Assembly (NCBI GenBank): GCA_964527765.1
Contig: CAZGQR010000004.1
Span: 64,083-128,082, forward strand
Source of the DNA: an uncultured Planctomycetia bacterium
Lineage (GTDB): Bacteria; Omnitrophota; Gorgyraeia; Tantalellales; Tantalellaceae
Reading direction: 5' to 3'
DNA length: 64,000 nucleotides
The notes under the pieces were generated by a model that worked only from the letters and a program-made list of their open reading frames with translations, made no database searches and was not told where the DNA came from. Shown here piece by piece: positions 1 through 22,917 of this stretch; the stretch's first letter is position 1, and every line of letters starts with the position of its first letter. The position numbers and the translations under genes are program-made.

Positions 1-28
1 CGCAAACGGTACAAAAAGGTGTGTTTTT

Positions 29-889
29 GTGCTTTGCTTTGCGCTTTGCGCCATGCTTCTGGCGGGTTGTTCCCGTGAAGTTCCTCCCGTCGAGATCAAC
101 GTTGACGCCGGTGCGGCGATGATAGCTGAAGCCAAGAACGGAAAGATACTGTTCGAAAAGAACCCGGACAGGAGGTTCCCCCCCGCATCTACGGCAAAGG
201 TCATGACGGCGATCGTCGCTATAGAGCGCATACCTCTCACAAAAGATATGGTTGTTTCCAGGAGGGCGGTCCGCGTTGCGCCGACAGTGGCGGGTCTAAG
301 GTCCGGGACAGAGTATCAGATGAGAGACCTCATCGACGCGATACTTATAAAATCGGCTAATGACGCGGCGGTCGTTATCGCCGAGGGGGTAGCCGGCAGC
401 GAGAAAGAATTTGCCCGCCTCATGAACGCGATGGCCAAAGAGCTCGGCATGGAGAACACCTATTTCGCGAACGCCACCGGCCTTCCCGCAGGCAAAAACG
501 ACCGGCAGTACACCACGGCGGAGGATCTTGTAAAAATGATGCGCTACGCCATGCGTTATAAGGTCATCCTGAAGGCGATGTCCAAAAAAGAGGCAGATAT
601 ATACGGCAGTGACGGGAGAAGGATACACCTGGGAACCCATAACAAGGCTCTTTTGCGGGATAGCGAAGCGCCATGGGGAAAGACGGGTTATACGAAGCAG
701 GCGAGGCGCACCTTTGTCGGGGTGGACCCTTCCCCGGACCCGCATATAACGTTCGCGCTTCTTCGTTCCGATGATCTCTGGAATGATATTACCACGCTTA
801 ACGACCGGGGGCTTGAGATCTACAGGAGGAACCACAGGACGCTTGTTTCCGATCTGGTCCGCTGGATAAGGTCCGAGAGAGAGAAGTGA
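29..889 (+). CDS. D-alanyl-D-alanine carboxypeptidase (peptidase S11, PBP5/6-like) lipoprotein; may extend upstream of window
   Basis: Lipobox LLAGCS near N-terminus. SxxK (STAKVM), SxN (SANDAA) and KTG (KTGYT) motifs in S11 order. GTG start at 29 with no in-frame stop upstream, so true start could lie outside the window. Confidence 0.75.
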   Translation: MLCFALCAMLLAGCSREVPPVEINVDAGAAMIAEAKNGKILFEKNPDRRFPPASTAKVMTAIVAIERIPLTKDMVVSRRAVRVAPTVAGLRSGTEYQMRDLIDAILIKSANDAAVVIAEGVAGSEKEFARLMNAMAKELGMENTYFANATGLPAGKNDRQYTTAEDLVKMMRYAMRYKVILKAMSKKEADIYGSDGRRIHLGTHNKALLRDSEAPWGKTGYTKQARRTFVGVDPSPDPHITFALLRSDDLWNDITTLNDRGLEIYRRNHRTLVSDLVRWIRSEREK

Positions 890-892
890 GGT

Positions 893-3800
893 ATGCAAAA
901 AAAACTTTCCGTTGCCTTTCTCTGGCACATGCACCAGCCGCTGTATAAAGACCTCGCCACGGGGAAATATCATCTTCCCTGGGTGAGGCTGCACTCGACG
1001 TATTCCTACCTTGATATGGTCAGCATACTTGACAGGTTCCCGCGCGCGAAAATGACCTTTAATTTTACGCCGTCCCTTATCCTGCAGCTGCTGGATATAT
1101 CCAAAGAGGGGCCCCTTGACGATATATATCTTCAATTGTCCGAGAAGAAAGCAACGCACCTGACCGACAGGGATAAATATTTCCTTCTTAAGAATTTTTT
1201 CTCGTGCGACCCGAAAAGAGCCATGACACCCTTCAAAAAATACAGGGACCTTTTTTCGAAAAGGGGGAATGATCTGCGGGAAGAAGAGCTCATCAGGAAA
1301 GCCGGGGATTTCAGCGTGTCTGACTTCAGGGACCTCCAGGTATTTTTTAACCTGGCCTGGTGCGGGTTCACATTGAGAGGCAAAGATCCCGTCGTAAGGG
1401 AACTTGTCCGTAAAGGCTCAAATTACACCGAGGATGACAAGACATCGCTTCTTAAGCGCCAGAGAGAAGTTGTCGCTTCGATCATACCTGCTTACAGGCG
1501 ATTGCAGGACGAAGGCAGGGCGGAGATATCGACATCGCCGTTCTATCACCCGATACTTCCTCTTCTCAGCCGCGGCCGGCCCGGAGATGGATCTGATCTT
1601 TCGAAGGATGCGAGAGATCAGGTAAGGAAAGCTATCGCCCTTTACGGGGAAGTGTTCGGCGCAAGGCCCGCCGGCATGTGGCCGCCGGAAGGAGGCGTAG
1701 ACCGGGAAACGGTGTCTCTCCTGGCGGGCGAAGGCATAAAGTGGGCCGCGGCTGACGAGAGTATTTTACTGGAATCCCTTGGAGGAAAGAACATCCCGGA
1801 AAAAGAGCTTGTTAACAGGGTTTATACGGTGAAAGAAGACGGCAGAGAGCTCGATATGGTCTTCAGGGATACGTACATCTCTAACGCGATAAGTTTCATG
1901 TACGCGTACATGCCGCCGAGAAAAGCGGCGGCGGATTTTCTCAGGAGCGTAAGAAAGGCAGCCAGAACCGCAGAGCCGCGCGAGGAAGGGAATATAGTCA
2001 CCGTCATATTGGACGGAGAGAACCCCTGGCCTTATTATGCGGACGGCGGCAAGAGATTCCTTTCGGATGTTTACGCGCAATTATCCTCGAGCAGGGAAAC
2101 AGAGCTCGTCACCATAAGCGGGTATCTCGGCTCCCACAAGGGCAGGGGCAGGATCAGCGAGCTTGCCAGCGGTTCGTGGATAGACCGCGATTTTGGCAGA
2201 TGGACAGGATCTCCCCAGAAGGACAGGGCCTGGGGATATTTGAAGGATGCAAGGAAAGAGCTGTTCAGTTCAGGACATCCGGACGCGGATGCCCTGGAAG
2301 AACTGTATGCAGCGGAGGGAAGCGACTGGTTCTGGTGGTATGACGATTTCGGGAGCGAGCTGAATTTCGTATTCGACGAGCTTTTCAGGCTGCACCTGTC
2401 AAATACCTACACCCTTACGGGGCGAAAAGCTCCTCATTATCTTGCCAGACCGGTGCCGGCAGGTCCGTCTATCCGGAAACTGCCCGGAGCGGGAGCTCCT
2501 GTCATCCCGGCAGCCCGCCCCCGGAAGGTCCTCATAGTGTCGTCTGAGGCCGTTCCCTTCGCCAAGACAGGCGGCCTGGCGGATGTCGCCGGGAGCCTCT
2601 CGCAGGAACTGGTATCTCTCGGCTGCGATGCAAGGGTCATCATGCCGCTCTACAAGTGCGTTACGGAAGGCAATTTCAAGATAACCAGGGAAAAGGCCGG
2701 CATCAGACACCGGGCCCTGGGCATAAAGCGCCCGTTCGATCTTTATTCGGGCCGGACCGGTAAGGTCGCTGCTTATTTCGTGAAGAACCAGAGGTATTTC
2801 GCAAGGGACGGATTGTACGGCACGCCTGAAGGGGGTTACCGGGATAACGGCCTGAGGTTCGGTTTTTTCTCAAAAGCGGTCCTGTCAGCTATCAAAGCGA
2901 TCGATTTCAAGCCCGATATCATACATTGCAATGACTGGCAATCGGCGCTTGTCCCGTTCTATTTAAGGTTCAAGCTTGCGGATGACGAATTTTACCGGGG
3001 CATCAAAACACTCTTCACCATACACAATATGGCGTACCAGGGCGTTTTCAGCAAAAGGATCATGCGCGGGATCGGCATACCGGGAAGTTTCTTTGATATA
3101 GACGGCCTGGAGTTTTACGGGAAGCTGAACTTCATGAAATCCGGGATACTTTATTCGGATGCCGTCAGCACGGTAAGCCATCGTTACGCCGAAGAGATAA
3201 TGATGCCGGAATACGGCTCCGGCCTTGACGGATTTCTGCGGACCAGGAAAGAGGGTATCTACGGCATACCTAACGGCGCGGATTATTCAGTGTGGAGCCC
3301 GGAAAGAGACAGCTTTCTGAAAGTCAATTACGGCGCCGGGGACGTAGAAAAGAAGATCGAATGCAAGAAGGACCTGCTTGAATATACCCGCCTGCCGCTT
3401 CCGGTCGAAACGCCCTTACTCGGTTGCATCAGCAGGCTTGCCGATCAGAAGGGGATGGACCTTCTGGCCGGCATAATGGACAGGATCATCGGGCTGAACG
3501 CCGGCGTGGTGATCCTCGGCAGCGGCAGCAGGTATTACAATGAGCTTTTCGCAGGATTGGCCGGGAAGTATCCCCGGAATATCTATGTGTGCAGCGACTT
3601 CAATGACGAACTTGCCCATAAAATAGAGGCGGGATGCGACATGTTCGTCATGCCTTCCCGTTATGAACCCTGCGGTCTCAACCAGATGTACAGCATAAAA
3701 TACGGCACAATACCGATAGTGAGGGCCACCGGCGGCCTTGATGACGTCATCGTGGACCTCGATGACGACAATGAGAACGGGAACGGCTTTAAATTCAAAC

Positions 3801-3967
3801 CGGCGACCAAAGACGCTCTTTATCGGACCATAGAAAGGGCCGTTCGCCTGTATCGTGAAGATAAGACCTTATGGCAGAAACTAATGGTCCGCGCCATGGG
3901 TTATGATTTCTCATGGGCGCATTCAGCCAGGCAATACCTGGAACTGTACGGAAAGCTTATATCTTAA
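893..3967 (+). CDS. glgA: Fusion protein: N-terminal GH57 glycoside hydrolase domain (AmyC-like) plus C-terminal ADP-glucose-type glycogen synthase (GT5)
   Basis: N-terminus has GH57 signatures: FLWHMHQPLYK, MWPPEGG, ILDGENPW, GSDWFWWYDDFGSE. A Pro/Ala-rich linker (PVPAGPSIRKLPGAGAPVIPAARP) follows. Then the GlgA hallmark KVLIVSSEAVPFAKTGGLADVAGSL and C-terminal GT-B features. Single uninterrupted 1024-codon ORF. GAGG RBS before ATG 893. Confidence 0.85.
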   Translation: MQKKLSVAFLWHMHQPLYKDLATGKYHLPWVRLHSTYSYLDMVSILDRFPRAKMTFNFTPSLILQLLDISKEGPLDDIYLQLSEKKATHLTDRDKYFLLKNFFSCDPKRAMTPFKKYRDLFSKRGNDLREEELIRKAGDFSVSDFRDLQVFFNLAWCGFTLRGKDPVVRELVRKGSNYTEDDKTSLLKRQREVVASIIPAYRRLQDEGRAEISTSPFYHPILPLLSRGRPGDGSDLSKDARDQVRKAIALYGEVFGARPAGMWPPEGGVDRETVSLLAGEGIKWAAADESILLESLGGKNIPEKELVNRVYTVKEDGRELDMVFRDTYISNAISFMYAYMPPRKAAADFLRSVRKAARTAEPREEGNIVTVILDGENPWPYYADGGKRFLSDVYAQLSSSRETELVTISGYLGSHKGRGRISELASGSWIDRDFGRWTGSPQKDRAWGYLKDARKELFSSGHPDADALEELYAAEGSDWFWWYDDFGSELNFVFDELFRLHLSNTYTLTGRKAPHYLARPVPAGPSIRKLPGAGAPVIPAARPRKVLIVSSEAVPFAKTGGLADVAGSLSQELVSLGCDARVIMPLYKCVTEGNFKITREKAGIRHRALGIKRPFDLYSGRTGKVAAYFVKNQRYFARDGLYGTPEGGYRDNGLRFGFFSKAVLSAIKAIDFKPDIIHCNDWQSALVPFYLRFKLADDEFYRGIKTLFTIHNMAYQGVFSKRIMRGIGIPGSFFDIDGLEFYGKLNFMKSGILYSDAVSTVSHRYAEEIMMPEYGSGLDGFLRTRKEGIYGIPNGADYSVWSPERDSFLKVNYGAGDVEKKIECKKDLLEYTRLPLPVETPLLGCISRLADQKGMDLLAGIMDRIIGLNAGVVILGSGSRYYNELFAGLAGKYPRNIYVCSDFNDELAHKIEAGCDMFVMPSRYEPCGLNQMYSIKYGTIPIVRATGGLDDVIVDLDDDNENGNGFKFKPATKDALYRTIERAVRLYREDKTLWQKLMVRAMGYDFSWAHSARQYLELYGKLIS

Positions 3968-4022
3968 CAGGGGTGAATGTTCGCAGCACGGGCACGCCCT
4001 GTAAAAGCTGAAAGGAAACACC

Positions 4023-6152
4023 GTGAAGGCTGATTTCGCGATCGTCCTGCATTTTCACCAGCCGGTAGGGAATTTTGACCATGTCATCAATGAGGCATGC
4101 GATAAGTGCTATGTCCCGTTCCTTGAGACTTTGAGAAAATACCCGGCTATAAAGATGACCCTGCATTTCAGCGGTTGTCTTCTCGAATGGGCCGAGCAGA
4201 AAAAGCCCGAGATACTCGGGATGGTCCGGGAAATCGCGGAAACCGGGCAGGTCGAGATAATGAGCGGGGGTTTTTACGAGCCGATCCTTCCGGTGATACC
4301 CCCGGGGGACGGCTTGGCCCAGATCAGGATGTTGAACGAGTACGTGAGGTCGAAATTTTCATGCGAGGCGAAAGGGGCCTGGATAGCTGAGCGCGTATGG
4401 GAGCCCTCGCTGCCTTCCGTATTGCACGATGCCGGGATAGAGTATGTCGTGTTGGATGACACGCATTTCATTTATTCCGGCATTTCCAAAGAGAAGACCT
4501 ACGGTTATTATATCACGGAGGATAATGCCAGAGGAGTGGCTGTTTTCCCTTCGGATAAGATCCTGCGATATTACATTCCCTTCAAGGCGCCGTCCGAAAG
4601 CATGGATTACATGCGAAGCGTCCTCCGGGGAAAAGATAACCTGCTTTTCGTCTACGGCGACGACGGCGAAAAATTCGGAGAGTGGCCCGGAACGCACAAA
4701 TGGGTGTTCGAAGAAAAATGGCTGGAAAGATTTTTCGGCGAGATCATACAGAACAAGGACTGGTTGGATACCGTAAAGCTGTCCGAATGTCTTAGGAAAA
4801 GACCTCCTGAAGGGAGAGTGTACCTGCCCGCGGCTTCTTATGAAGAAATGCTCAAGTGGGCGCTTCCGGCCGAAGCTGCGCAGCAAATGGAGAACGCACT
4901 CGAAGACCTGCGGCAGTCGGGCAAGGAAGATCTGTACAGGCCTTTTATCAGGGGAGGATTCTGGCGGAACTTCCTGGCAAAATACCCCGAATCCGACCAT
5001 ATGAACAAGAAGATGGTCTATGTAAGCGGGAAACTGGAAAGGCTCCGCGCCGGAAGAAAAGCAAGACCGCCCCTGGCGGCGGCGGAAAAGGACCTTTTCC
5101 GAGGACAGTGCAACTGTGCTTACTGGCACGGTATATACGGCGGATTGTACCTGTTCCATATCAGGAAAGCCGTTTATCACCACCTGATCAGGAGCGAGGT
5201 CCTGATGGACAGGGTGCGTTACGGCAGGAGGCAGTTCTGCGCGGCGGATGTTTCTGATGTGGACGCTGACGGTCTCGATGAAGTGATACTGGAGAACAGG
5301 GAAGTATCGCTGTATTTTGCCCCCGCCGAAGGCGGAATATTAAAAGAGCTTGACTCAAAACCGGCCTGTCAGAATCTTATAAATTCTCTTGCCCGCAGGA
5401 AAGAGGCGTATCACGGCAAGATCCTGGAGAAGATCAGGCGCGCCGGGGTGGAAGAAACGGACAAGGTCAGGACCATACATGATGATGTCCAGGCGGCTGA
5501 CGCCCGGCTTAAGGATCATCTGTATTATGACCGGTACGGCCGTTACAGTCTTATCGATCATTTTTTCGGCAGCGATGTGGATATTGAAGCGTTCTCCCGC
5601 TGTGCTTATGAGGAAGCCGGTGATTTCATAAGAGGGATCTATGACTTTGAAGTAAAGAAGACCCGCAGGGGGATCATGCTGGTCATGCAAAGAGAAGGAC
5701 TGGCGGGCGGTTCCGGAGTTCATGTGGCGAAAGAGATATTTCTACCCGCCAGGGACGCTTCTTTTAAAGTCCGATACAGGATCGTCAACAGGGCCGACGG
5801 GGAAATGGATCTTGTTTTCGGTCCGGAATTCAACGTGACCATGCCCGATGCTGACGCGGAAAAATATTCCCTGGTCATTAATGGCGACGAAAAGCATCAC
5901 GAACTCGGCGATATGGTCCGGCACGAAGGCGCGCGAAGGATAGAGATCCGGGATGCCGACAGGCAGCTGTCGTTTGAGATGGTACTCGGCGAGGAATGTC
6001 CCCTCTGGCACTTTCCCGTAAGAACGGTGTCGCAATCGGAAAAAGCGTACGAGCTTCATTATCAGAGTTCGGTGCTGCTGCCGCGCATCAGGCTGAAACT
6101 CGGTGCCGGGGAAGAGAAACGATTTGACCTGGGGATCAAACTGCTCCATTGA
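4023..6152 (+). CDS. GH57 family alpha-amylase/4-alpha-glucanotransferase-like glycoside hydrolase
   Basis: GH57 conserved regions: HFHQPVGNF, GQVEIMSGGFYEPIL, WIAERVWEP, and VYGDDGEKFGEWPG (the catalytic acid/base block). GTG start with AAAGGA RBS. Confidence 0.8.
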   Translation: MKADFAIVLHFHQPVGNFDHVINEACDKCYVPFLETLRKYPAIKMTLHFSGCLLEWAEQKKPEILGMVREIAETGQVEIMSGGFYEPILPVIPPGDGLAQIRMLNEYVRSKFSCEAKGAWIAERVWEPSLPSVLHDAGIEYVVLDDTHFIYSGISKEKTYGYYITEDNARGVAVFPSDKILRYYIPFKAPSESMDYMRSVLRGKDNLLFVYGDDGEKFGEWPGTHKWVFEEKWLERFFGEIIQNKDWLDTVKLSECLRKRPPEGRVYLPAASYEEMLKWALPAEAAQQMENALEDLRQSGKEDLYRPFIRGGFWRNFLAKYPESDHMNKKMVYVSGKLERLRAGRKARPPLAAAEKDLFRGQCNCAYWHGIYGGLYLFHIRKAVYHHLIRSEVLMDRVRYGRRQFCAADVSDVDADGLDEVILENREVSLYFAPAEGGILKELDSKPACQNLINSLARRKEAYHGKILEKIRRAGVEETDKVRTIHDDVQAADARLKDHLYYDRYGRYSLIDHFFGSDVDIEAFSRCAYEEAGDFIRGIYDFEVKKTRRGIMLVMQREGLAGGSGVHVAKEIFLPARDASFKVRYRIVNRADGEMDLVFGPEFNVTMPDADAEKYSLVINGDEKHHELGDMVRHEGARRIEIRDADRQLSFEMVLGEECPLWHFPVRTVSQSEKAYELHYQSSVLLPRIRLKLGAGEEKRFDLGIKLLH

Positions 6153-6198
6153 CCGGATAGGTACGCGTCGGCTGATCTCTTTGCCCGCAAAATATCTG

Positions 6199-6228
6199 TT
6201 GACATTATTTAACGGCAGGAGTTAAAAT
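6199..6228 (+). promoter_or_regulatory. σ70-like promoter candidate (TTGACA-18 nt-TAAAAT) upstream of the DUF4912-like gene
   Basis: TTGACA 6199-6204 and TAAAAT 6223-6228 in the 128-nt gap after the GH57 gene. Confidence 0.4.
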
Positions 6229-6280
6229 TTAACATCACTCTTGCCTTATTATAACTTAGACGGTAAATATAAGGAGCTAA

Positions 6281-6721
6281 ATGGGACACCCTGATCTTCC
6301 GCATTATTATGGCGATAATAAGATCATCCTGATGGTAAGGGATCCGTGGACGATCTACGCGTACTGGGAGGTAAAGAAAGACATTGAGGATGAGGCGCGG
6401 GAAAAGATGCGAAGAAGAGGACTTGATATCTCAAGGAATATCTTGCGCGTATATGACGTGACGGAAAATGATCCGGACCTGGATCCCAAAGTGGTCTTTG
6501 ATCTTGAGCTGAATGGTCGGGCAGGCGACTGGTATATCCACGCCGTGCGCCCGGGAAGAGAATGGATGGTTGACATAGGAATACTCTCCACGAGAGGTGA
6601 TTTCTTCCGGCTTGCCAGGTCCAATGCGGTCAGGACTCCCGTTCACGACATGCCATATCCGTACGACGAAAATAGCGCCACCTCCGGGCTGTTTCGCGGT
6701 GCCAGTTCATTTGAGCGATAG
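6281..6721 (+). CDS. Small DUF4912-like protein (family frequently encoded next to GH57 genes; assignment from memory)
   Basis: 146 aa. N-terminal ILMVRDPWTIYAYWEV motif typical of the GH57-associated DUF. Sits between two GH57 genes and has its own TTGACA-N18-TAAAAT promoter-like element upstream. Confidence 0.5.
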   Translation: MGHPDLPHYYGDNKIILMVRDPWTIYAYWEVKKDIEDEAREKMRRRGLDISRNILRVYDVTENDPDLDPKVVFDLELNGRAGDWYIHAVRPGREWMVDIGILSTRGDFFRLARSNAVRTPVHDMPYPYDENSATSGLFRGASSFER

Positions 6722-6730
6722 AAAGTAAAT

Positions 6731-8320
6731 ATGCCAAAGGGTTATCTAGCTTTAGTATTGCACGCTCACCTGCCTTTTATAAGGCATCCGGAACACGAAA
6801 GTTTTCTTGAGGAAAACTGGCTGTTCGAATCCATGACCGATGCCTATATCCCGCTCATTAACGTGTTTGACAGGCTTATAGGCGACGGTGTGGATTTCCG
6901 GGTCACGATCTCCCTGAGCCCCACGCTTATTAACATGCTGAGGGACGGACTTCTCATGTCGAGATATCTGATGTATCTGGATAAATCGATATCGCTCAGC
7001 AGGCTTGAAGTTGAAAGGACACGGTCGGATAAACGCATCAATGACCTGGCCTTGATGTACCTCGAGAGGTTTGAGCGGGCAAAATATACATTTTCGGAAA
7101 GCTGCGGCGGTGACCTCATAGGCGCGTTCAAAAGATTCCAGGACGCGGGAAAGATCGAGATCATCACATCTTGCGCCACGCACGGGTACCTGCCTCTCAT
7201 GGACCTTCACAGACCCGCAGTAAAAGCGCAGGTGGCTGTTGCGGTGGATGTGTATAAGGACGTTTTCGGCCGCGCCCCCAAAGGCATGTGGCTTCCCGAA
7301 TGCGGTTATTATCCCGGCCACGACGAAATACTGAAAGAATTCGGCATCCGGTATTTCTTCGTGGACACTCACGGGATACTGCTGGGGACCCCGAAGCCCG
7401 CGCCTTTCGGCGTCTATAGTCCGTACCTGTGCAAGTCGGGCGTTGCCGTTTTCGGAAGGGACATGGAAAGCTCCAAGGCGGTGTGGAGCGCCGAAGAAGG
7501 TTATCCCGGCGATCATAACTACAGGGAATATTACAGGGATATAGGCTTTGACCTGGATTATGATTATATCAGGCCTTTCATCAATGGTTGCGGGACCCGG
7601 ACGAACACTGGCATAAAATACCACAGGATAACCGGTAAAACTGACCATAAGGACATCTACGACAGAGAAGCGGCGCTGGATACAGCCCGGGGTCATGCGG
7701 GTAACTTCATGTTCAACAGGGAAAAACAGGCGGAATACCTCGCCGGCACTATGGACAGGGCCCCCGTGATCGTCTCACCTTATGATGCCGAGCTTTTCGG
7801 GCACTGGTGGTTCGAGGGGCCGGAATGGCTGGAATTTCTCCTGCGCGGGATGTATCATGGCCGGAGCGCCGTGGAGACCATTACGCCCGGCGGCTATCTG
7901 GAGCTTTACGGGGAATACCCTGTTATAACGCCTTCGGAGTCCAGCTGGGGCTGGAAGGGGTACAGCGAAGTATGGCTGGACGGTTCCAACGACTGGATAT
8001 ACAGGCATCTTCACAAGATGATGGAGCTTATGACCCGCGCCGCCGCGGATCATAAAGACGCTGCCGGACTTGACAGGAGACTGCTCAACCAGATGGCCAG
8101 GGAATTGCTTCTCGCCCAGTCAAGCGACTGGGCGTTCATCATGAAAACCGGCACGTTCACGGATTATGCGGCCGGCAGGACCAAGGAGCATATCAAGAGA
8201 TTTTTTGCCCTGTATGACCAGTTGGGCAAGGGTGAGGTGGACGCGGCTTTACTGGAAGAAGCCGAGGGCAGATATAACGTGTTCAAGGACATCGATTACA
8301 GTGTTTATGCGGGAGTTTGA
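6731..8320 (+). CDS. GH57 family 1,4-alpha-glucan branching enzyme
   Basis: N-terminus LALVLHAHLPFIRHPE...EENWLFESMTDAYIPLI closely resembles Thermus/Thermococcus GH57 branching enzymes. WLPECGYYPG and SPYDAELFGHWWFEGPEWL blocks are present. Confidence 0.8.
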   Translation: MPKGYLALVLHAHLPFIRHPEHESFLEENWLFESMTDAYIPLINVFDRLIGDGVDFRVTISLSPTLINMLRDGLLMSRYLMYLDKSISLSRLEVERTRSDKRINDLALMYLERFERAKYTFSESCGGDLIGAFKRFQDAGKIEIITSCATHGYLPLMDLHRPAVKAQVAVAVDVYKDVFGRAPKGMWLPECGYYPGHDEILKEFGIRYFFVDTHGILLGTPKPAPFGVYSPYLCKSGVAVFGRDMESSKAVWSAEEGYPGDHNYREYYRDIGFDLDYDYIRPFINGCGTRTNTGIKYHRITGKTDHKDIYDREAALDTARGHAGNFMFNREKQAEYLAGTMDRAPVIVSPYDAELFGHWWFEGPEWLEFLLRGMYHGRSAVETITPGGYLELYGEYPVITPSESSWGWKGYSEVWLDGSNDWIYRHLHKMMELMTRAAADHKDAAGLDRRLLNQMARELLLAQSSDWAFIMKTGTFTDYAAGRTKEHIKRFFALYDQLGKGEVDAALLEEAEGRYNVFKDIDYSVYAGV

Positions 8321-8377
8321 CCGGAAGCGGCCGGCATTAGCGCGGCTACTTCCGGCGAGCCCGGAGGGATAATCATT

Positions 8378-9631
8378 ATGGAAGAAGCACTTTGTGTCAT
8401 CCTTGGAGGGGGCAGGGGAACGCGGCTTTATCCGCTTACCAAGGAAAGGTGTAAACCCGCGGTCCCCCTGTTCGGAAAATACAGGCTGATAGATGTGCCT
8501 GTCAGCAATTGTCTTAATTCGGGGTTCAACCGCATTTACATACTTACCCAGTTCCTGTCCGAATCGCTGAACAAGCATATAAGCCGCACATATAATATGG
8601 ACCCTTTCAGCAAGGGGTTTATCGAGATAATGGCCGCGGAACAGTCCATGGACGACACGGACTGGTTCCAGGGGACAGCCGATGCGGTCAGGCGCTGTCT
8701 CAAGCATTTTAATGACCCCGCCGTCAAATACATATTTGTCCTGTCCGGCGACCAGTTATATAAAATGGACCTGAGGGACATGTATCGCTACCACCTTGAA
8801 AAGAAAGCGGAGCTGACGATCGCCTGCAATTACGTGGAGCCGCAAAAGGTATCCGAGTTCGGGATAATGGACATAAATGACGATGCCAGGATAACCGGGT
8901 TTGTGGAGAAACCGAAAGACCGCTCAAAGATAGGAGATATGGCCGTAAAATACAACGGCAGGGAACATTTCCTTGGTTCAATGGGCATATACCTGTTCAA
9001 TAAACCGGCTTTGATAGAACTTCTCACCGAGGACAAAAAAGCCGATTTCGGATGGGAAATAATACCCGACGCGATACATGCCAAACCGACATACGCTTTT
9101 CGTTTCGGCGGTTACTGGCACGATATCGGGACCATAAAGACTTTTTACGAGGAGAACCTTTCTCTTACCGAGTCGCTTCCGCCTCTCGACATGTTCAATG
9201 AAAATTGGCTGATATTCACCAGGCCGCGTTATCTCCCCCCCGCGAAATTCAAGAACAGCTGCATAGAGAGGAGCATCGTCGCCGAAGGCGCGATAGTCCT
9301 CTCATCCAAAATAGTGCATTCGATCATAGGCCTCAGGTTCAGGGTAGGTACGGATTCGACGATCGAGGATACCGTGGTGATGGGCTGCGATTATTACGAG
9401 ACAATGGATGAGATCGAGGAAAACAGGTCCAGGGGGATACCGCCTCTGGGGGTCGGAAAAGATTGCCTGATAAAAAAGGCCATACTGGATAAGAATGTCA
9501 GGATAGGGGATAACGTCAGGATAATCAATACTAAAAAGCTGGACAACCATGACGATGCGAATTATGCCATAAGGGACGGGATAGTCATTATCGGCAAGAA
9601 TTCCGTTATTCCTTCCGGGACGGTTATTTAA
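8378..9631 (+). CDS. glgC: Glucose-1-phosphate adenylyltransferase
   Basis: ILGGGRGTRLYPLTKERCKPAVPLFGKYRLIDVPVSNCLNSG N-terminal nucleotidyltransferase signature and C-terminal left-handed beta-helix repeats. Confidence 0.9.
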   Translation: MEEALCVILGGGRGTRLYPLTKERCKPAVPLFGKYRLIDVPVSNCLNSGFNRIYILTQFLSESLNKHISRTYNMDPFSKGFIEIMAAEQSMDDTDWFQGTADAVRRCLKHFNDPAVKYIFVLSGDQLYKMDLRDMYRYHLEKKAELTIACNYVEPQKVSEFGIMDINDDARITGFVEKPKDRSKIGDMAVKYNGREHFLGSMGIYLFNKPALIELLTEDKKADFGWEIIPDAIHAKPTYAFRFGGYWHDIGTIKTFYEENLSLTESLPPLDMFNENWLIFTRPRYLPPAKFKNSCIERSIVAEGAIVLSSKIVHSIIGLRFRVGTDSTIEDTVVMGCDYYETMDEIEENRSRGIPPLGVGKDCLIKKAILDKNVRIGDNVRIINTKKLDNHDDANYAIRDGIVIIGKNSVIPSGTVI

Positions 9632-9647
9632 GCAGAAAAGAGGAAAA

Positions 9648-10409
9648 ATGCCGGATACGTTTGCCATTACCATACTTTTTATCGTTGTCTGCACCGTGGC
9701 AGGCGCTTTTGTAAAGGGCCGGACGAAAGATCTGTGTCTTCGGGATTTTTCCGGGTACTCCGTGACTCTTGAGAAGACCGGCGGCAAGGTCGTCTGGGGA
9801 AAGCTGCGCGTCGAGAATTCGGCGCTTGAGCTCGTCTATCCGGAACCTTATACGGATGAAAAGGACAAGCACACAGAGACAAGCTACATCCTCTATAAAA
9901 GCGAATACGGGCAGATGAAAGCCCTCGTGCGGTATATCGACGACCTTGATCCGGAGCGCGCGAAGGCGCGCGAAAAAGACCTTAAAAAGACGCGCTATCC
10001 TCACTGGTCTTCGCGCCTCATGCGGAGGGGGCGTAATTTTTTCGGGACGGTCCGCGATTCGCTTCTGGAAGTCGCGAATCTTTTTATGGGACGCGTCAAG
10101 TCGGCGATGCCCGCGGGCAAGATGCTGCAGGGGCAGGATAAATACGTTTCACAGCTTCAGCAGCAGGCAGCTGCGGCGATGCAGACATCCTATGAACCGA
10201 CGCTGGAGAGGTATATAGGTAAGGAAGTCGTCCTGGCTGTCATGCAGGACGGCAACAAGACGGAATACGCGGGCATTCTCAAGGACTATACGACGGAATT
10301 CATTGAAATAATGGATACCCGGTATGCGGATGCCCTGAGGAAGGAAACCCGCAGGGCTGATCTGGTGGTCCCCAGGGCCCTGGGGATAGTGCGGCATGCG
10401 GGAGGGTAA
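9648..10409 (+). CDS. Hypothetical protein with N-terminal transmembrane anchor
   Basis: Hydrophobic N-terminus (ITILFIVVCTVAGAF). No recognisable motifs. Lies 16 nt after glgC, probably co-transcribed. Confidence 0.4.
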   Translation: MPDTFAITILFIVVCTVAGAFVKGRTKDLCLRDFSGYSVTLEKTGGKVVWGKLRVENSALELVYPEPYTDEKDKHTETSYILYKSEYGQMKALVRYIDDLDPERAKAREKDLKKTRYPHWSSRLMRRGRNFFGTVRDSLLEVANLFMGRVKSAMPAGKMLQGQDKYVSQLQQQAAAAMQTSYEPTLERYIGKEVVLAVMQDGNKTEYAGILKDYTTEFIEIMDTRYADALRKETRRADLVVPRALGIVRHAGG

Positions 10410-10415
10410 GACATA

Positions 10416-10988
10416 ATGAAGGTGCTTGGAATAAGCGGCAGCCCCAGGACCGGCGGGAACACGGATATCCTGCTTGAGAAAGCTCTTGAAGGAGCCGCCT
10501 CCTGCGGAGCGGAGACGGAAAAGATCATCCTGAACGAGCTTGAGATCGCGCCCTGCCAGCAGCAGGAATACGAGAATGTCAATGACGAGGGCCTCTCCGT
10601 GGTAGATGACGACATTCAGATCATATTCAGGAAGATAAAGGAGAGCGGGGCCCTCATTCTGGCATCGCCCATATTTTTCGGGAGTCTTTCCGCGCAGACC
10701 AAGACGATGATAGACCGTTTCCAGTGCGTGTGGCTGGCGAAGAATATACTGAAAAAGGATGTATTCACCGGAAAGATAGCAGGCGGTTTTATCTGCGTCG
10801 AGGCTACCCTGCGTGAAGATTTTTTTGACAACGCGAGATCGATCGTCAGGCATTTCTTTGCCACCATCGGGGTATCTTACAGAGGGGAAGTTTTTTGCCC
10901 GGGCCTGGATAAAAAGGGAAAAGTGCTGGAGCATCCCGGATGTCTTGAGAGCGCGCTCGAATTAGGCAGAAAAATAGCGGCCGGATAA
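10416..10988 (+). CDS. Flavodoxin-like NADPH-dependent FMN reductase / iron-sulfur flavoprotein family
   Basis: MKVLGISGSPRTGGNTDILL N-terminal FMN-binding loop typical of the FMN_red family. Confidence 0.65.
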   Translation: MKVLGISGSPRTGGNTDILLEKALEGAASCGAETEKIILNELEIAPCQQQEYENVNDEGLSVVDDDIQIIFRKIKESGALILASPIFFGSLSAQTKTMIDRFQCVWLAKNILKKDVFTGKIAGGFICVEATLREDFFDNARSIVRHFFATIGVSYRGEVFCPGLDKKGKVLEHPGCLESALELGRKIAAG

Positions 10989-11003
10989 TAGAAAAGGAAA
11001 AAA

Positions 11004-14048: not shown

Positions 14049-15506
14049 ATGAGCGGGATTTTTGGAGTAGTTTCCAGGGGGAATTGCGCGGAGACGTTAT
14101 TATACGGCACGGATTATCATTCGCATCTGGGCACGGAATACGGAGGCGTAGCCGTGCTGGGGGATGATTTTCAGCGGCAGATCCACAGTATCAGCCAGAG
14201 CCAGTTCAAATCCAAGTTCTATGAAGACTGCAGGCGGATGTCCGGCAACAAGGGTATAGGCGTCATCTCGGACAGCAATGAGCAGCCCATCTTTCTTAAT
14301 TCAAAATTCGGGCCGTTCTGTATCGTTACCGGCGGACTCATAGAAAACAGCGAAGAACTGACGAAAGAACTGCTCGCCAAGGGCGTTTCCTTTAGCGAGA
14401 TGAGCAAGGCGACGGTCAACGTGACGGAACTGATAGCAAAGCTGATCAACCAGGGGAATGACCTGATAGACGGCATTGAAAAGATGTTCGATAAAATAGA
14501 AGGTTCCTGCTCGCTGCTGTTGCTGAACAGGGAAGGTGTCTATGCTGCCAGGGACCGCCTGGGATATACGCCCCTTGTCGTCGGGAAGAGAGAAGACGCG
14601 TGGGCAGTGACTTCCGAGACATCAGCTTTTCCCAATAACAGGTTTGAGATAGTGAAGTATCTTGAACCCGGAGAGATAGTCGTGATCAACGAGCAGGGCA
14701 TGGTGCAGAAAAGAGGCGGGGGCGACAGGAACCAGATATGCGCCTTTTTATGGTTATATACCGGTTTTCCCGCCTCGAATTATGAGGGGATCAACGTGGA
14801 AACGGTAAGGGAGAAGTGCGGCAGGTATCTGGCGCAGAAAGACAAAGATATTGAAGTGGATATGGTTTCCGGGATACCCGATTCGGGAGTAGCTCACGCG
14901 CTCGGATATGCCATGGAGTCCGGCAAGCCCTTAAGGAGGCCGCTGGTAAAATACACTCCCGGATACGGCCGAAGTTACACTCCGCCATCACAGGAGACCC
15001 GCGATCTGGTCGCCACCATGAAACTCATCCCCATAAAGGATATAATCAAGGGCAACAGGATCGTCGTATGCGAGGATTCCATAGTAAGGGGGACGCAGTT
15101 AAAGAACTTCACGGTGAATAAATTATGGGAATGCGGCGCCAAGGAGATTCACGTCAGACCCGCATGCCCGCCGCTCATGTTCCCGTGCAAGTTCTGCCTG
15201 TCCACGCGGAGCATCCATGAACTTGCCGCCCGAAAGGCCATCCGGGACCTGGAAGGGCACGACATAGAGGATGTATCGGAATACGCCGACCATAATACGG
15301 AAAAGTACAAGAAGATGGTGAAGTGGATCGCCGATGACCTGGGCGTGACCACCCTCAGATATCAGACGCTCGATGATATGGTCAAAGCCATCGGTTTGCC
15401 GAAAGAGAAGCTGTGCCATTATTGCTGGACCGGCGAAAGCCCCGATCCGGAGCATAAGCCAAAAAATACGGGCAAGATGAGACAGAAAGTATCCCACGGC
15501 TCGTAA
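14049..15506 (+). CDS. Amidophosphoribosyltransferase (PurF)-family protein with Ser replacing the N-terminal nucleophile Cys
   Basis: MSGIFGV N-terminus (canonical PurF is MCGIxG). PRTase block VCEDSIVRGTQ. ACPPLMFPCKFC cysteine cluster reminiscent of Fe-S PurF enzymes. GGGAGG RBS. Extended -10 promoter upstream. Confidence 0.7.
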   Translation: MSGIFGVVSRGNCAETLLYGTDYHSHLGTEYGGVAVLGDDFQRQIHSISQSQFKSKFYEDCRRMSGNKGIGVISDSNEQPIFLNSKFGPFCIVTGGLIENSEELTKELLAKGVSFSEMSKATVNVTELIAKLINQGNDLIDGIEKMFDKIEGSCSLLLLNREGVYAARDRLGYTPLVVGKREDAWAVTSETSAFPNNRFEIVKYLEPGEIVVINEQGMVQKRGGGDRNQICAFLWLYTGFPASNYEGINVETVREKCGRYLAQKDKDIEVDMVSGIPDSGVAHALGYAMESGKPLRRPLVKYTPGYGRSYTPPSQETRDLVATMKLIPIKDIIKGNRIVVCEDSIVRGTQLKNFTVNKLWECGAKEIHVRPACPPLMFPCKFCLSTRSIHELAARKAIRDLEGHDIEDVSEYADHNTEKYKKMVKWIADDLGVTTLRYQTLDDMVKAIGLPKEKLCHYCWTGESPDPEHKPKNTGKMRQKVSHGS

Positions 15507-19193: not shown

Positions 19194-20992
19194 AGATAGA
19201 CTTTCGCAAAGCGGGGATCATCTGGTATTTTTTCAAACCGTATAAAGCACAGCTGCTGATCTTGCTGTTTGTAATGCTTTCCTCCGGTTTTATGGAAATG
19301 TTAAACCTGGCAGCTCTGTATCCTGTGATGAATTATGGGCTTAAGCTGGAGAACAGTAATTTTCTTTTGATATTATTCAATGAAATTATCGTTCATTTCG
19401 CGACCGACAATTATTTCTTTGTCTCCTGTGTCGCGCTTATAGTTATTACTGTGATCGCCGTGATATTCAAGTTTGCCTACAGTTTTTTATCAAACAAGCT
19501 GGTAATGAGAATTGTGGGAGATACGCAGAAAGCGGTCTTCAGGAAATATATAACTTCGGATTACGATTTCTTTGTTAAGAGCCAGCAGGGCAAATTGATC
19601 CATACAGTAACCATAGCTCCCGAACAGGTCACAAATATGATTTTATTCACTATAAGGCTGACACACGATCTGATAAGCTCACTATTTTTATTTTCTCTAC
19701 TGCTGGTGCTTACCTGGCAGGGGACTTTTTTGCTCGTATCAATAGGTGTTGTCTACATGCTGTTTGTAAAGAGGATCATGAAAAGAGTCATATATCGGTG
19801 CGCGGCTATTGCGACCGAGGAGGACAGGAAAAAGAATGTTATCCTGAATGAATTTATAAACGGCATCAAAGCCATCAAAATATTTTTTACTTTTAACGAC
19901 TGGGAAACGAAGTATGTCAGTGCGGTTGATGAGAGTTTGCACAATAGATTCAAGATGCTGCTGGGCCGCGTCTTCCCGGAATCTTTCATGAAGTTTATAT
20001 TTTTTGCCATGCTCGCTGTTTTTGGGATTTTGTTAAGCCGCAGGTCACCTCAGGACCTGATTCTGGCTATACCTCTTTTTGGAACGTTTGTGATGGTCGC
20101 AAGCCGTTTTTTCCCCTCGATCCAGATGGTCGGTAATGATCTTATGGTAATAACCGATTGCATCCCGAATACAAAGATAGTTCATACCCTGTGCATGTCA
20201 AAGCTTGCGAACATTCCGGACGGAACAGATATTTTAAAAGAATTCAACGGAAAGATCGCTTTCGAAGACGTCTGGTTTAAGTATGATAACATGCCGGAAT
20301 ACTTGTTAAAGGGCGTAACGTTCGGCATAAAGAAGAGAGAGATAACCGCCATTGTCGGTCCGTCCGGTTCGGGAAAAACAACTATAATCAATTTGTTATT
20401 AAAATTATATCGTCCAGAAACAGGCGAAATTAAAATTGACGGGACCGACATTTTTAGCTACACAAACAGATCCTATTTGGACAAGATCGGGTATGTAGGC
20501 CAGGAAACATTTATTTTTAACGACACCGTCAAGGAAAACATACGGTTCGGCATGCAAAACTGCAGCGATGATATGATAATAAGGGCGGCCAAACTGGCGA
20601 ATGCCCACGAATTTATTGTCAATACCCGGGATGGCTATAATACGCTGGTGGGAGACGCGGGTGTTAAGCTCTCAGGAGGACAGAGGCAGCGCGTTGCTAT
20701 CGCCAGAGCGATGCTGAGAGAACCGGAAATACTGGTCTTCGATGAAGCCACCAGCTCTCTGGATAATATTGCCGAGAAGAACGTGCAGGAAGCGATCAAC
20801 CGGGTATCACAACATACAACGGTAGTAATGGTCGCTCACAGGCTATCCACCATTCAGAATGCAGATAAAATAGTTGTTCTGGACAACGGCTCTATCTGGG
20901 AGGAAGGTACCCATACCGAGCTGATGGGCAATAACGGCCTGTATTTTAACCTTTATACAAAGCAGGATATTTTTATGCGGGAGAAAATATAA
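19190..20992 (+). CDS. ABC exporter, fused permease-ATPase (MsbA/PglK-like type I exporter)
   Basis: Six TM segments followed by Walker A GPSGSGKTT, signature LSGGQRQRVAIARAM and Walker B ILVFDEATS. No C39 peptidase domain. GTG start overlapping the MarR stop (GTGA). Confidence 0.85.
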   Translation: MKIDFRKAGIIWYFFKPYKAQLLILLFVMLSSGFMEMLNLAALYPVMNYGLKLENSNFLLILFNEIIVHFATDNYFFVSCVALIVITVIAVIFKFAYSFLSNKLVMRIVGDTQKAVFRKYITSDYDFFVKSQQGKLIHTVTIAPEQVTNMILFTIRLTHDLISSLFLFSLLLVLTWQGTFLLVSIGVVYMLFVKRIMKRVIYRCAAIATEEDRKKNVILNEFINGIKAIKIFFTFNDWETKYVSAVDESLHNRFKMLLGRVFPESFMKFIFFAMLAVFGILLSRRSPQDLILAIPLFGTFVMVASRFFPSIQMVGNDLMVITDCIPNTKIVHTLCMSKLANIPDGTDILKEFNGKIAFEDVWFKYDNMPEYLLKGVTFGIKKREITAIVGPSGSGKTTIINLLLKLYRPETGEIKIDGTDIFSYTNRSYLDKIGYVGQETFIFNDTVKENIRFGMQNCSDDMIIRAAKLANAHEFIVNTRDGYNTLVGDAGVKLSGGQRQRVAIARAMLREPEILVFDEATSSLDNIAEKNVQEAINRVSQHTTVVMVAHRLSTIQNADKIVVLDNGSIWEEGTHTELMGNNGLYFNLYTKQDIFMREKI

Positions 20993-22917
20993 TGGGGCAA
21001 ACAGAAAAAAACAGAATGGTTCTGATAGAGTCAGGTGATTCTGTTTCCTGCAGAATGGCGGCAAAATACAGGGAGGCATACGTATATTCCGGCAATTTGC
21101 GCGGCGCAAAAGGTCTCTCCGATGATTTTTTGGATCTGATAGACTATTACACGTCTCATTATAGAGCCGGCGAAGCGATCGATTGGGTATATGAACAGTA
21201 TGTTGAAAGCGGCGAAGCTGAGGTCCTCAACAGGGCGATAGGGGATAAGCGTGCCCACTTGGCCATAAAGAAAGCGATTTTGCTGGCACTAGGGGATCTT
21301 TTTCTTTCTTTTATCATGGCGGAAAAGTTTGTGAAAAAATACGATGTGGAGGAAACAATAGATTTTTTGCCCAACAAATTTTCGTACACCTTATATCAGA
21401 TTGTTTTTAAAAGAAAAGATTTAATGCCGGACCGCGTCAACATACCGGAATGGTATATAAAGAAGATGAAACGTCTGGAGTTCGGCAGGAACAGTGTTTA
21501 TCGCGCGGGACTGGTCCTGTATCCTCTTACGGTTTCCATGCTCATGAATCTCGGCAGAGCCGGAAAAACAGGAAAAAAGAATTACCGCTACGGAGTCCAT
21601 ATATGGAACGGCTGGGTCAGATCCTCGAGTTCATCAGCCCGGATAGGTTTTCTTGAGGATAAGAACGGCATCAATCAGGCGAATACATTATATATTCTGG
21701 ACTATAAGATCAAAAGAAGGGAAAGGAAAGCGGATCTTAAAAAGGTAAAAAACAGCGGTTATGATTACTGCCGTTTCGAAGAGATCGTGCGCGGGTTCAG
21801 CGTATGGAGATATTTCGGGGAGATCTATCCGGCTGTCAGAAGGGTCGCGAAGGAAATGTTTTCATTATGCGGCGGGAAGGGTCTTTTGGCGCGGTCATAT
21901 CTGAGGACGCTCCGGAGACTCATATTGTGGGAAATATTCTTTTCAAATTATGCCGTGGACTTATTCGTCGCCCTGCAGGATCCCGGTAATATACCGAGGA
22001 CGTTGCTCCAGAAGAAAAACGGAGCCGACAGCATATTTGTATTTACTTCCACTTCTTATGATCCCGTTTATCGGGAGAACATGGATACGCACGCTGATTC
22101 GAACTACAGCTTCATGGTTTATGACGCGGCGGTTTCAAGCCGCATGTCCAACGATTATTTCAGGAGAAATAACAATTTGATCAATGAGTATGTAAATTGC
22201 GGAATATTGCTTTCCGACAATGTTTACAGGGTAAGACAGGACGCCGCGTTGAAAGCAAGAATCAAAAAAGAGCTAGGCATTTCGCCGAACAAGGCCGTTA
22301 TAGGTTTTTATGATACAAAGATAGGAAAGATGGGCATGCTGAATAACCAGGAAGGCTACAGGATGATAAACGATGTTTATCGTCTTTTGGAATCGAACAA
22401 GGATTATTATATTCTCTTCAAGTCCAGGGGTTATTACCGGTATTCGGGAAATAGCGACGTCAAGAAAGAGATCGACAGGCTGATCGCGCATGAACGGGTG
22501 ATCCATGTCAATGAGACAAAAGCACATTCCGATTATGACGCGCGCTGTTTCATGGGGATCTGCGATCTGGTCATAGGGACCTTTACTTCGAGCGCGCCGT
22601 TGGAATCGGTTGCCGGAGGGATCAGGACAATTTGTTATGTTCCGTCCGAGAGATTCAATAAGGACGTCTTTGCGGTGAATACGTTCCCGCGCTTTTGCGC
22701 CCGCGGATATGACCAGTTAAAAGAGTATACGGAATACTGGCTTAACGAATGCAGCGAGGATGATTTTCGGTGTTTTCTGGATACTTATGTAAAAAAACAT
22801 GTTGATGATTACTGCGACGGCCAGGCGATGAAGAGGCTACATTCGTTGCTGGATCGATATAGCGGGCCGGCGCATGAACGTCCGCCCCGGGAAAAACTGG
22901 CAACGATTTCGAAATAA
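20992..22917 (+). CDS. Hypothetical 641-aa protein with TagB/TagF-like (CDP-alcohol phosphotransferase, Glyphos_transf-like) C-terminal pattern
   Basis: C-terminal YYILFKSRGYY...ICDLVIGTFTSSAPLESVAGGIRTICYVP resembles the TagF LIKPHP...SDILITDYSSVMFDFA...KPIIFY blocks. No other motifs recognised. TAATG overlap with the ABC gene. Confidence 0.4.
   Translation: MGQTEKNRMVLIESGDSVSCRMAAKYREAYVYSGNLRGAKGLSDDFLDLIDYYTSHYRAGEAIDWVYEQYVESGEAEVLNRAIGDKRAHLAIKKAILLALGDLFLSFIMAEKFVKKYDVEETIDFLPNKFSYTLYQIVFKRKDLMPDRVNIPEWYIKKMKRLEFGRNSVYRAGLVLYPLTVSMLMNLGRAGKTGKKNYRYGVHIWNGWVRSSSSSARIGFLEDKNGINQANTLYILDYKIKRRERKADLKKVKNSGYDYCRFEEIVRGFSVWRYFGEIYPAVRRVAKEMFSLCGGKGLLARSYLRTLRRLILWEIFFSNYAVDLFVALQDPGNIPRTLLQKKNGADSIFVFTSTSYDPVYRENMDTHADSNYSFMVYDAAVSSRMSNDYFRRNNNLINEYVNCGILLSDNVYRVRQDAALKARIKKELGISPNKAVIGFYDTKIGKMGMLNNQEGYRMINDVYRLLESNKDYYILFKSRGYYRYSGNSDVKKEIDRLIAHERVIHVNETKAHSDYDARCFMGICDLVIGTFTSSAPLESVAGGIRTICYVPSERFNKDVFAVNTFPRFCARGYDQLKEYTEYWLNECSEDDFRCFLDTYVKKHVDDYCDGQAMKRLHSLLDRYSGPAHERPPREKLATISK

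Follow-up and report, generated by a model that had tools for sequence, protein, structure and literature searches.

A one-gene fusion of a GH57 domain and the glycogen synthase GlgA in an Omnitrophota glycogen operon

The fusion gene and its two domains

The window analysed here is a stretch of 64,000 nucleotides from contig CAZGQR010000004.1 (assembly GCA_964527765.1) of an uncultured bacterium placed in the Omnitrophota, and near its start lies a single gene that encodes both a glycoside hydrolase family 57 (GH57) domain and a glycogen synthase, GlgA. The closest solved relative of the GH57 half is AaApu (PDB 9jlq/8zyi; E 1e-71 over residues 3-502, 37% identity), and residue correspondences with AaApu are taken from the pairwise alignment. 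The gene is an open reading frame (ORF) in which the ORF and translation check found no stop or frameshift. Its layout is as follows, with CSR denoting a conserved sequence region of GH57.

893 to 3967, + strand: fusion ORF, GH57-linker-GlgA, 1024 codons plus stop, ATG start
893 to 2443, + strand: GH57 catalytic domain, residues 1-517, predicted to be AaApu-type (PF03065, PDB 9jlq/8zyi, Foldseek)
1688 to 1690, + strand: codon of Glu266, predicted catalytic nucleophile in WPPEGG of CSR-3, aligned with AaApu Glu256
2012 to 2014, + strand: codon of Asp374, predicted acid/base in DGENPW of CSR-4, aligned with AaApu Asp352
2444 to 2524, + strand: Pro/Ala-rich interdomain linker, residues 518-544 (composition, model confidence and substitution pattern)
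2510 to 2512, + strand: codon of Ala540, at the alignment column where orthologues have Met
2525 to 3964, + strand: GlgA domain, residues 545-1024, glycosyltransferase family 5 (GT5), GT-B fold (TIGR02095, 3d1j, 1rzu)
2564 to 2578, + strand: KTGGL loop (K558), GlgA motif
3665 to 3667, + strand: codon of E925, conserved Glu of GlgA

Pfam, NCBIfam and the translation agree on this architecture. PF03065 (GH57) covers residues 8-421 (E 5e-57, 193.8 bits against a cut-off of 21.2), and the C-terminal half carries PF08323, the starch-synthase catalytic domain of GT5, at residues 545-783 (E 7e-83) followed by PF00534 (GT1) at residues 836-986. The same half scores 536 bits against the TIGR02095 glgA model (cut-off 328.45) and passes the equivalog NF001899 with 471.6 bits (cut-off 459). 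The motifs HMHQP (nucleotides 926-940), DGENPW, SDWFWWYDDFG and KTGGLADV all lie within the one frame, and the linker between the halves, ARPVPAGPSIRKLPGAGAPVIPAARPR, contains 7 Pro and 6 Ala among its 27 residues. No signal peptide was found on the fusion, whose strand beta1, bearing HMHQP, begins at residue 5.

The first-pass annotation had described a single ORF joining GH57 to a canonical GlgA through a Pro/Ala-rich linker free of stops and frameshifts, and this description holds well beyond the window. GC content is continuous over the join (2400-2560), and the exact fusion protein has been called on 8 contigs. The representative of its 90% cluster, P0001, differs from the window protein by M713L alone; this codon (nucleotides 3029-3031), in the HN(M/L)AYQG motif, encodes Met in the window and Leu in P0001, with Met in 45 of 61 orthologues. 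Among 5.8 billion protein clusters searched, about 61 full-length orthologous ones (1009-1052 residues, 49-76% identity) were found with an identical junction. The assemblies behind them are from JGI, ENA, NCBI and Logan, all named sources are Omnitrophota, and in every cluster the frame stays open across a linker some 25 residues long. Such fusion sequences number well over a hundred in databases, where they are annotated merely as "glycogen synthase GlgA". We reject a chimeric assembly join because the 8 contigs and about 61 orthologous clusters from independent assemblies share the junction; the one-gene GH57-GlgA fusion is thereby confirmed as genuine, with a single reading frame and an architecture inherited across an Omnitrophota clade.

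Mutagenesis of AaApu identified Glu256 (in WPPEAS) as its nucleophile and Asp352 (in DGENCW) as its acid/base (PMC12106739). Their counterparts in the fusion, Glu266 and Asp374, are invariant in all 61 orthologues, as are the HxHQP and SDW(F/Y)WW motifs. The five CSRs can be placed at HMHQP (residues 12-16), G208..E211-I212, W263-P-P-E266, D374-G-E-N and E475-G-S-D-W, and are nearly all invariant across the 61. A CSR-5 that ends in two Trp residues has been described as an amylopullulanase fingerprint in a survey of GH57 (PMC6037648), and CSR-5 of the fusion ends in this way (SDWFWW). We therefore assign the GH57 half, on its sequence, to the AaApu-type "amylopullulanase" group. Like the GH57 half, AaApu consists of one catalytic domain, some 480-520 residues long, with the same five CSRs and catalytic Glu/Asp pair; it differs in being a free-standing protein of 477 residues from a hyperthermophile, whereas a covalent link holds the GH57 half to GlgA in what is probably a mesophile, and in CSR-2, where Glu211 of the fusion stands in place of Ser190.

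The catalytic residues of the GH57 half had been thought conserved from the start, and alignment to characterized enzymes of the family bears this out, with both the Glu and the Asp present. Since these residues are intact, the comparison argues for a catalytically active domain rather than a binding remnant. The initial label "AmyC-like" does not stand: the structure of T. maritima AmyC (2b5d) had no match to the GH57 half at E<=1e-3 and superimposed on it with a target-normalized TM-score (TMt) of only 0.59, and what it does match is another gene, at 6731-8320. AmyC itself is nowadays classed as a branching enzyme (PMC6616209), and Pfam found no BE_C domain in the fusion protein.

Over its full length the GlgA half can be aligned with E. 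coli GlgA 3d1j (E 1e-92), and it keeps the HNxxYQG, R..QKG and EPCGL motifs. K558 with its TGGL, D681, H711, R848, K853 and E925 are conserved in 60-61 of the 61 orthologues; we take D681, H711, R848, K853 and E925 to be the equivalents of E. coli GlgA D137, H161, R300, K305 and E377. The canonical GlgA of E. coli (2qzs/3d1j) or A. tumefaciens (1rzu) stands alone with about 480 residues, whereas the synthase of the fusion has a 544-residue N-terminal extension and, in the window, has lost its ancestral start Met. No residue known to be required for catalysis is missing from either half.

With 52 orthologues as input, AlphaFold2 gave a model whose mean predicted local distance difference test score (pLDDT) is 84 over the whole protein. 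Superposition of this model on AaApu recovers the (beta/alpha)7 barrel and helical bundle of GH57, and Foldseek aligns the N-terminal half to AaApu with a TMt of 0.89-0.90 and a root-mean-square deviation of about 3 Å. The C-terminal half shows the two Rossmann domains of the GT-B fold and matches A. tumefaciens GlgA (1rzu) with a TMt of 0.90. Foldseek found no solved structure that spans both halves (best query-normalized TM-score 0.44). Because pLDDT is below 50 in the linker core (residues 525-541) and the predicted TM-score (pTM) of the whole chain is only 0.68, the model is best read as a flexible tether with no confident fixed interface; it would thus describe two well-folded units on such a tether.

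The pattern of substitution agrees with this division. In the ten genes for which DNA was available, the ratio of nonsynonymous to synonymous differences (pN/pS) is 0.34 for the GH57 domain, 0.32 for the GlgA domain and 0.81 for the linker; synonymous divergence (dS) is saturated in most pairs, and these ratios are to be read only relative to one another. The two domains are equally constrained, under purifying selection, and the linker appears to evolve almost neutrally, with a core that is predicted to be disordered.

Unfused relatives and other fusions

Two relatives carry the halves as separate genes. L085 (8001-11623), whose flanking genes and operon order are identical to those of the window, encodes a 707-residue GH57 protein, a stop and, after a 38-nt gap, a 486-residue GlgA. 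L086 (2470-5500) is a short contig showing the GH57-GlgA pair alone: a 519-residue GH57 protein, a TGA, one nucleotide, and the ATG of a 489-residue GlgA. Their GH57 proteins are about 56% identical to the GH57 half of the fusion, and unlike in the fusion a stop codon separates the two genes. Because L085 and L086 carry the halves as separate adjacent genes, the fusion reads as a Rosetta-stone event between operon neighbours.

The L085 GH57 protein retains an ancestral C-terminal extension of about 190 residues that the fused short form lacks, and this extension is homologous to that of free-standing GH57 forms of about 700-750 residues. Pfam gave no match in it even at E<=1, and an unfused long form, P0109, reached a pLDDT of 33 in single-sequence AlphaFold2. 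Among the matches listed, the long free-standing forms occur in Nitrospira, Geomonas, Desulfobacterota, Planctomycetota and others, and often adjoin GlgA, a GH57 glucanotransferase or GlgC; in Geomonas (L032 and L036) the GH57 gene is followed by GlgA. When contigs were scanned with the GH57 half, L001 was the only fused orthologue among the matches listed.

Neighbour-joining of the GH57 domain with 100 bootstrap replicates places the fused short forms together with L085 and L086 in an exclusive clade in 99 of 100 replicates. The unfused genes of L085 and L086 fall within the fused clade (100 of 100 and 97 of 100 replicates, respectively), which implies repeated fusion or fission within one Omnitrophota clade. 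A second class of fusion, of about 1220 residues with a middle domain between GH57 and GlgA and with named members in the Dormibacteraeota and Eisenbacteria, forms a clade of its own in 99 of 100 replicates. Like the window protein, these long-type fusions have an N-terminal GH57 and a C-terminal GlgA with catalytic motifs in both; unlike it they keep a middle domain of about 200 residues, and the linker Met of its orthologues is absent from the sequences shown. Since they formed an exclusive clade with the short type in none of the 100 replicates, the long type represents an independent fusion.

Other combinations were also found. Fusions of the glycogen-branching-enzyme type (P0146 and P0198) resemble the window protein in placing GH57 before GlgA on a single chain whose two parts retain their catalytic motifs, but differ from it in belonging to another GH57 subfamily and in having a BE_C domain. 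P0161 and P0265 (1371-1637 residues) join a GH13 alpha-amylase domain to GlgA, and P0200 joins an Apu-like GH57 to a GT4 glycosyltransferase. A glucan-active domain placed N-terminal to a glucan synthase is a recurring design, and GH57 and GlgA activities have become joined several times in independent events.

Fusions of glucan enzymes are known from other systems, namely GlgA-GlgB in Criblamydiaceae/Waddliaceae, GlgB-MalQ in Neisseria, and TreS-Mak (Chem Rev 2024, PMC11046441). Like the fusion described here, they unite consecutive enzymes of one glucan pathway in a single polypeptide; their partners come from other families (GH13, GH77 and a kinase). The branching domain of the chlamydial GlgA-GlgB is reported to be inactive (PMC11046441), whereas both halves of GH57-GlgA look intact. 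No description of a GH57-GT5 fusion was found in the full-text literature, a search that had CAZy outside its scope, and the combination of an Apu-type GH57 with GT5 is not mentioned in PMC11046441, PMC6037648 or the AaApu paper (PMC12106739). The Apu-type GH57-GlgA fusion is therefore apparently undescribed. It is not a new kind of system, being made of textbook families and domains within the known theme of glucan-enzyme fusions.

Proposed function in the operon

The fusion gene heads a same-strand array of five genes, of which the remaining four are listed here.

4023 to 6152, + strand: GH57 4-alpha-glucanotransferase homologue of the T. litoralis type, with AmyA middle and C domains (1k1w, E 1e-132)
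6281 to 6721, + strand: DUF4912 protein (PF16258, E 2e-28)
6731 to 8320, + strand: GH57 glycogen branching enzyme of the AmyC/TK1436 type (PF03065 and BE_C; 2b5d, E 2e-151)
8378 to 9631, + strand: GlgC, glucose-1-phosphate adenylyltransferase (NF002772, 569 bits, cut-off 537)

Orthologues as distant as 49% identity share this gene order. The glucanotransferase directly follows the fusion in those that were looked up, except in L092, where the contig ends. The operon is dedicated to ADP-glucose-dependent glycogen synthesis, and it defines an "all-GH57" type of glycogen operon, in which there are three GH57 subfamilies, counting the fusion, and no GH13 or GH77 gene. GlgC supplies ADP-glucose, which from its place in the same operon would be the donor for the GlgA half. 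No GlgP, GlgX or second GlgA was present among the window ORFs scanned.

We propose that the fusion is probably a cytoplasmic bifunctional enzyme of glycogen metabolism that arose from fused operon neighbours and in which the GH57 half acts on the glucan elongated by GlgA. Two adjacent, translationally coupled genes, for an AaApu-type GH57 endo-hydrolase/transferase and for GlgA, would have fused. The GlgA half would elongate alpha-1,4 chains with ADP-glucose from GlgC, and the tethered GH57 half would work on the same glucan particle, cleaving alpha-1,4 and possibly alpha-1,6 bonds and passing the cut chain to water or to another chain, transfer being possible for a retaining enzyme. The cuts would generate fresh acceptor ends or primers, or serve to trim chains that are misplaced, and the branching enzyme and glucanotransferase would complete the structure of the glucan. 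Tethering would increase the local concentration of each activity at the product of the other. The exact role of the GH57 half may be priming, trimming or turnover; the first-pass suggestion of trimming, remodelling or priming is plausible and draws indirect support from the conserved adjacency of GH57 and GlgA genes and from the independent fusions.

Several observations weigh against this proposal. An unregulated hydrolase attached to a synthase would seem futile, save where transfer is its main activity; as a purely hydrolytic partner would be futile, a regulated, limited or transfer-biased activity is favoured. A branching enzyme and a glucanotransferase are already present in the operon, which leaves no obvious non-redundant task for the GH57 half, and AlphaFold2 did not give a confident arrangement of the two domains. 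AaApu, from which the activity is transferred, shares only 37% identity with the GH57 half and is the enzyme of a hyperthermophile. In the secondary pocket of AaApu (R306, K308, S311, D312 and C356) the Arg and Ser are conserved in the fusion (R325 and S330), but the other three of the five residues differ (K308 to I/T, D312 to N, and C356 to P), and for this reason alpha-1,6 activity cannot be assumed. Finally, the linker Met present in 57 of 61 orthologues, but not in the window, could also yield a free GlgA.

The differences in the secondary pocket, together with the absence from the short fused form of the C-terminal extension seen in its long-form relatives, could be explained if the GH57 half were a non-catalytic glucan-binding or targeting module that anchors GlgA and replaces the extension of about 190 residues. 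Loss of catalytic residues would then be expected, yet Glu, Asp, HxHQP, DGEN and SDWFWW are invariant in 61 of 61 orthologues down to 49% identity, and the pN/pS of the GH57 domain (0.34) equals that of GlgA; we regard such a module as very improbable. Slightly less improbable, though still quite unlikely, is a mainly degradative or turnover role, in which the GlgA half would dock on glycogen and the GH57 half would mobilize it, standing in for GlgP/GlgX and delivering maltooligosaccharides to the downstream 4-alpha-glucanotransferase. In vitro, AaApu hydrolyses glycogen, starch and pullulan at random internal alpha-1,4 and alpha-1,6 bonds (PMC12106739), and the scanned ORFs hold neither GlgP, GlgX nor a second GlgA, as such a role would predict; however, GlgP/GlgX may lie elsewhere in the genome, all catalytic residues of GlgA are conserved, and GlgC is in the same operon. 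That the fusion is an artefact of assembly or gene calling, and in reality two genes, might be thought from the close relative L086, with its two abutting genes a TGA plus one nucleotide apart. This we consider negligible, given the 8 contigs and the open frame with a linker of the same length in about 61 clusters from independent projects and assemblers, and given a GC content without a break across 2400-2560.

The linker Met bears on a further alternative, of dual output, in which most orthologues make both the fusion, as a minor, specialized isoform, and a free GlgA from the ancestral start, an option lost in the window gene. At the column of window residue 540, 57 of 61 orthologues (P0002-P0062) have Met, within a mini-motif E-M-A-R in an otherwise variable linker, and this column aligns exactly with Met1 of the free-standing GlgA of the unfused relatives; the window gene has Ala540 instead. 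The Met could be a still-used internal start or part of a structural motif. Its conservation at exactly this position speaks for dual output, as does an upstream anti-Shine-Dalgarno pairing that is somewhat above average in most genes: in a test covering 10 genes, the pairing energy lay at the 4th-35th gene-wide percentile in 8 of 9 genes and at the 84th in one. These energies nevertheless fall inside the gene-wide distribution, and the test is without power because true starts in these genomes mostly lack a Shine-Dalgarno (SD) sequence. Moreover, E-M-A-R is absent from the N-termini of free-standing GlgA proteins, which indicates a structural role, and the long-type fusions shown have no Met at that position. 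On this balance dual output appears unlikely.

The start codons of the fusion genes themselves are of two kinds. Those of most orthologues, as in L001, L081 and L087-L089, follow AT-rich leaders with no SD complementarity within 25 nt upstream, and the duplex energy at these SD-less starts is -2.1 to +0.1 kcal/mol; the window gene (GAGGT) and L091 possess an SD.

Returning to the bifunctional enzyme that we favour, the fusion of neighbouring operon genes gives strong evidence that their products act together. The fusion, at least two further GH57-GlgA fusions of independent origin and the conserved adjacency of the two genes in several phyla would together tie the "amylopullulanase" type to the glycogen synthase step, and an inherited fusion suggests that this type works with the synthase inside the cell. 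It was previously known only as an in-vitro "amylopullulanase", and AaApu-type enzymes have so far been studied as starch-degrading industrial enzymes. A bolder extension would have AaApu-type GH57 proteins serve GlgA specifically, as its partners in making glycogen, in many bacterial phyla. In that extension, cuts made in nascent chains by the tethered GH57 would multiply acceptor ends or supply primers, for a self-priming or self-editing synthase, and most Omnitrophota orthologues would also release a free synthase through the internal start. We offer it tentatively, and think it clearly more likely to be wrong than right. The fusion gives a testable handle on the priming of glycogen particles and on the editing and control of particle number, and as a natural chimera of a synthase and a hydrolase/transferase it may find use in making designer alpha-glucans.

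Other features around the operon

One further gene adjoins the fusion on its upstream side.

29 to 889: S11 D-Ala-D-Ala carboxypeptidase, ending 3 nt before the fusion start

The adjacency of this carboxypeptidase gene to the fusion is kept in nearly all orthologous loci examined, and a functional link to glycogen is not evident. Within the operon, the DUF4912 gene occupies the same position in L081-L085 and always lies between the glucanotransferase and the branching enzyme in the loci examined; the only two papers found to mention DUF4912 do not treat it in a glycogen context. Between the branching enzyme and GlgC, orthologous loci carry in addition a small DUF2934 ORF; the window has a 58-nt gap there. 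The coordinates of the DUF4912 and DUF2934 ORFs are 14227-14817 and 16429-16644 in L081, and 14356-14991 and 16606-16848 in L083.

A scan of positions 1-11000 gave no excess of promoters over shuffled sequence (12 found, 9.9 expected), and 19 terminator-like sites against 11.9 in shuffles (standard deviation 3.3), none of them informative. A promoter-like site at 6199-6228 (TTGACA, 18 nt, TAAAAT; 11 of 12 matches) lies within the 128-nt gap before the DUF4912 gene, and could serve as an internal operon promoter, although the scan overall was not above its shuffled controls.

Further downstream, from 19190 to 63177, about 40 same-strand genes make up an island of glycan synthesis and modification. 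Pfam gave no match for two of its large ORFs, at 20992-22917 and 48244-50160. The island includes an ABC exporter, radical-SAM/SPASM and B12-radical-SAM enzymes, a carbamoyltransferase, a 4,6-dehydratase and a DegT aminotransferase, together with a UDP-GlcNAc 2-epimerase, a sulfotransferase, a phosphoenolpyruvate (PEP)-utilising enzyme and an asparagine synthase.

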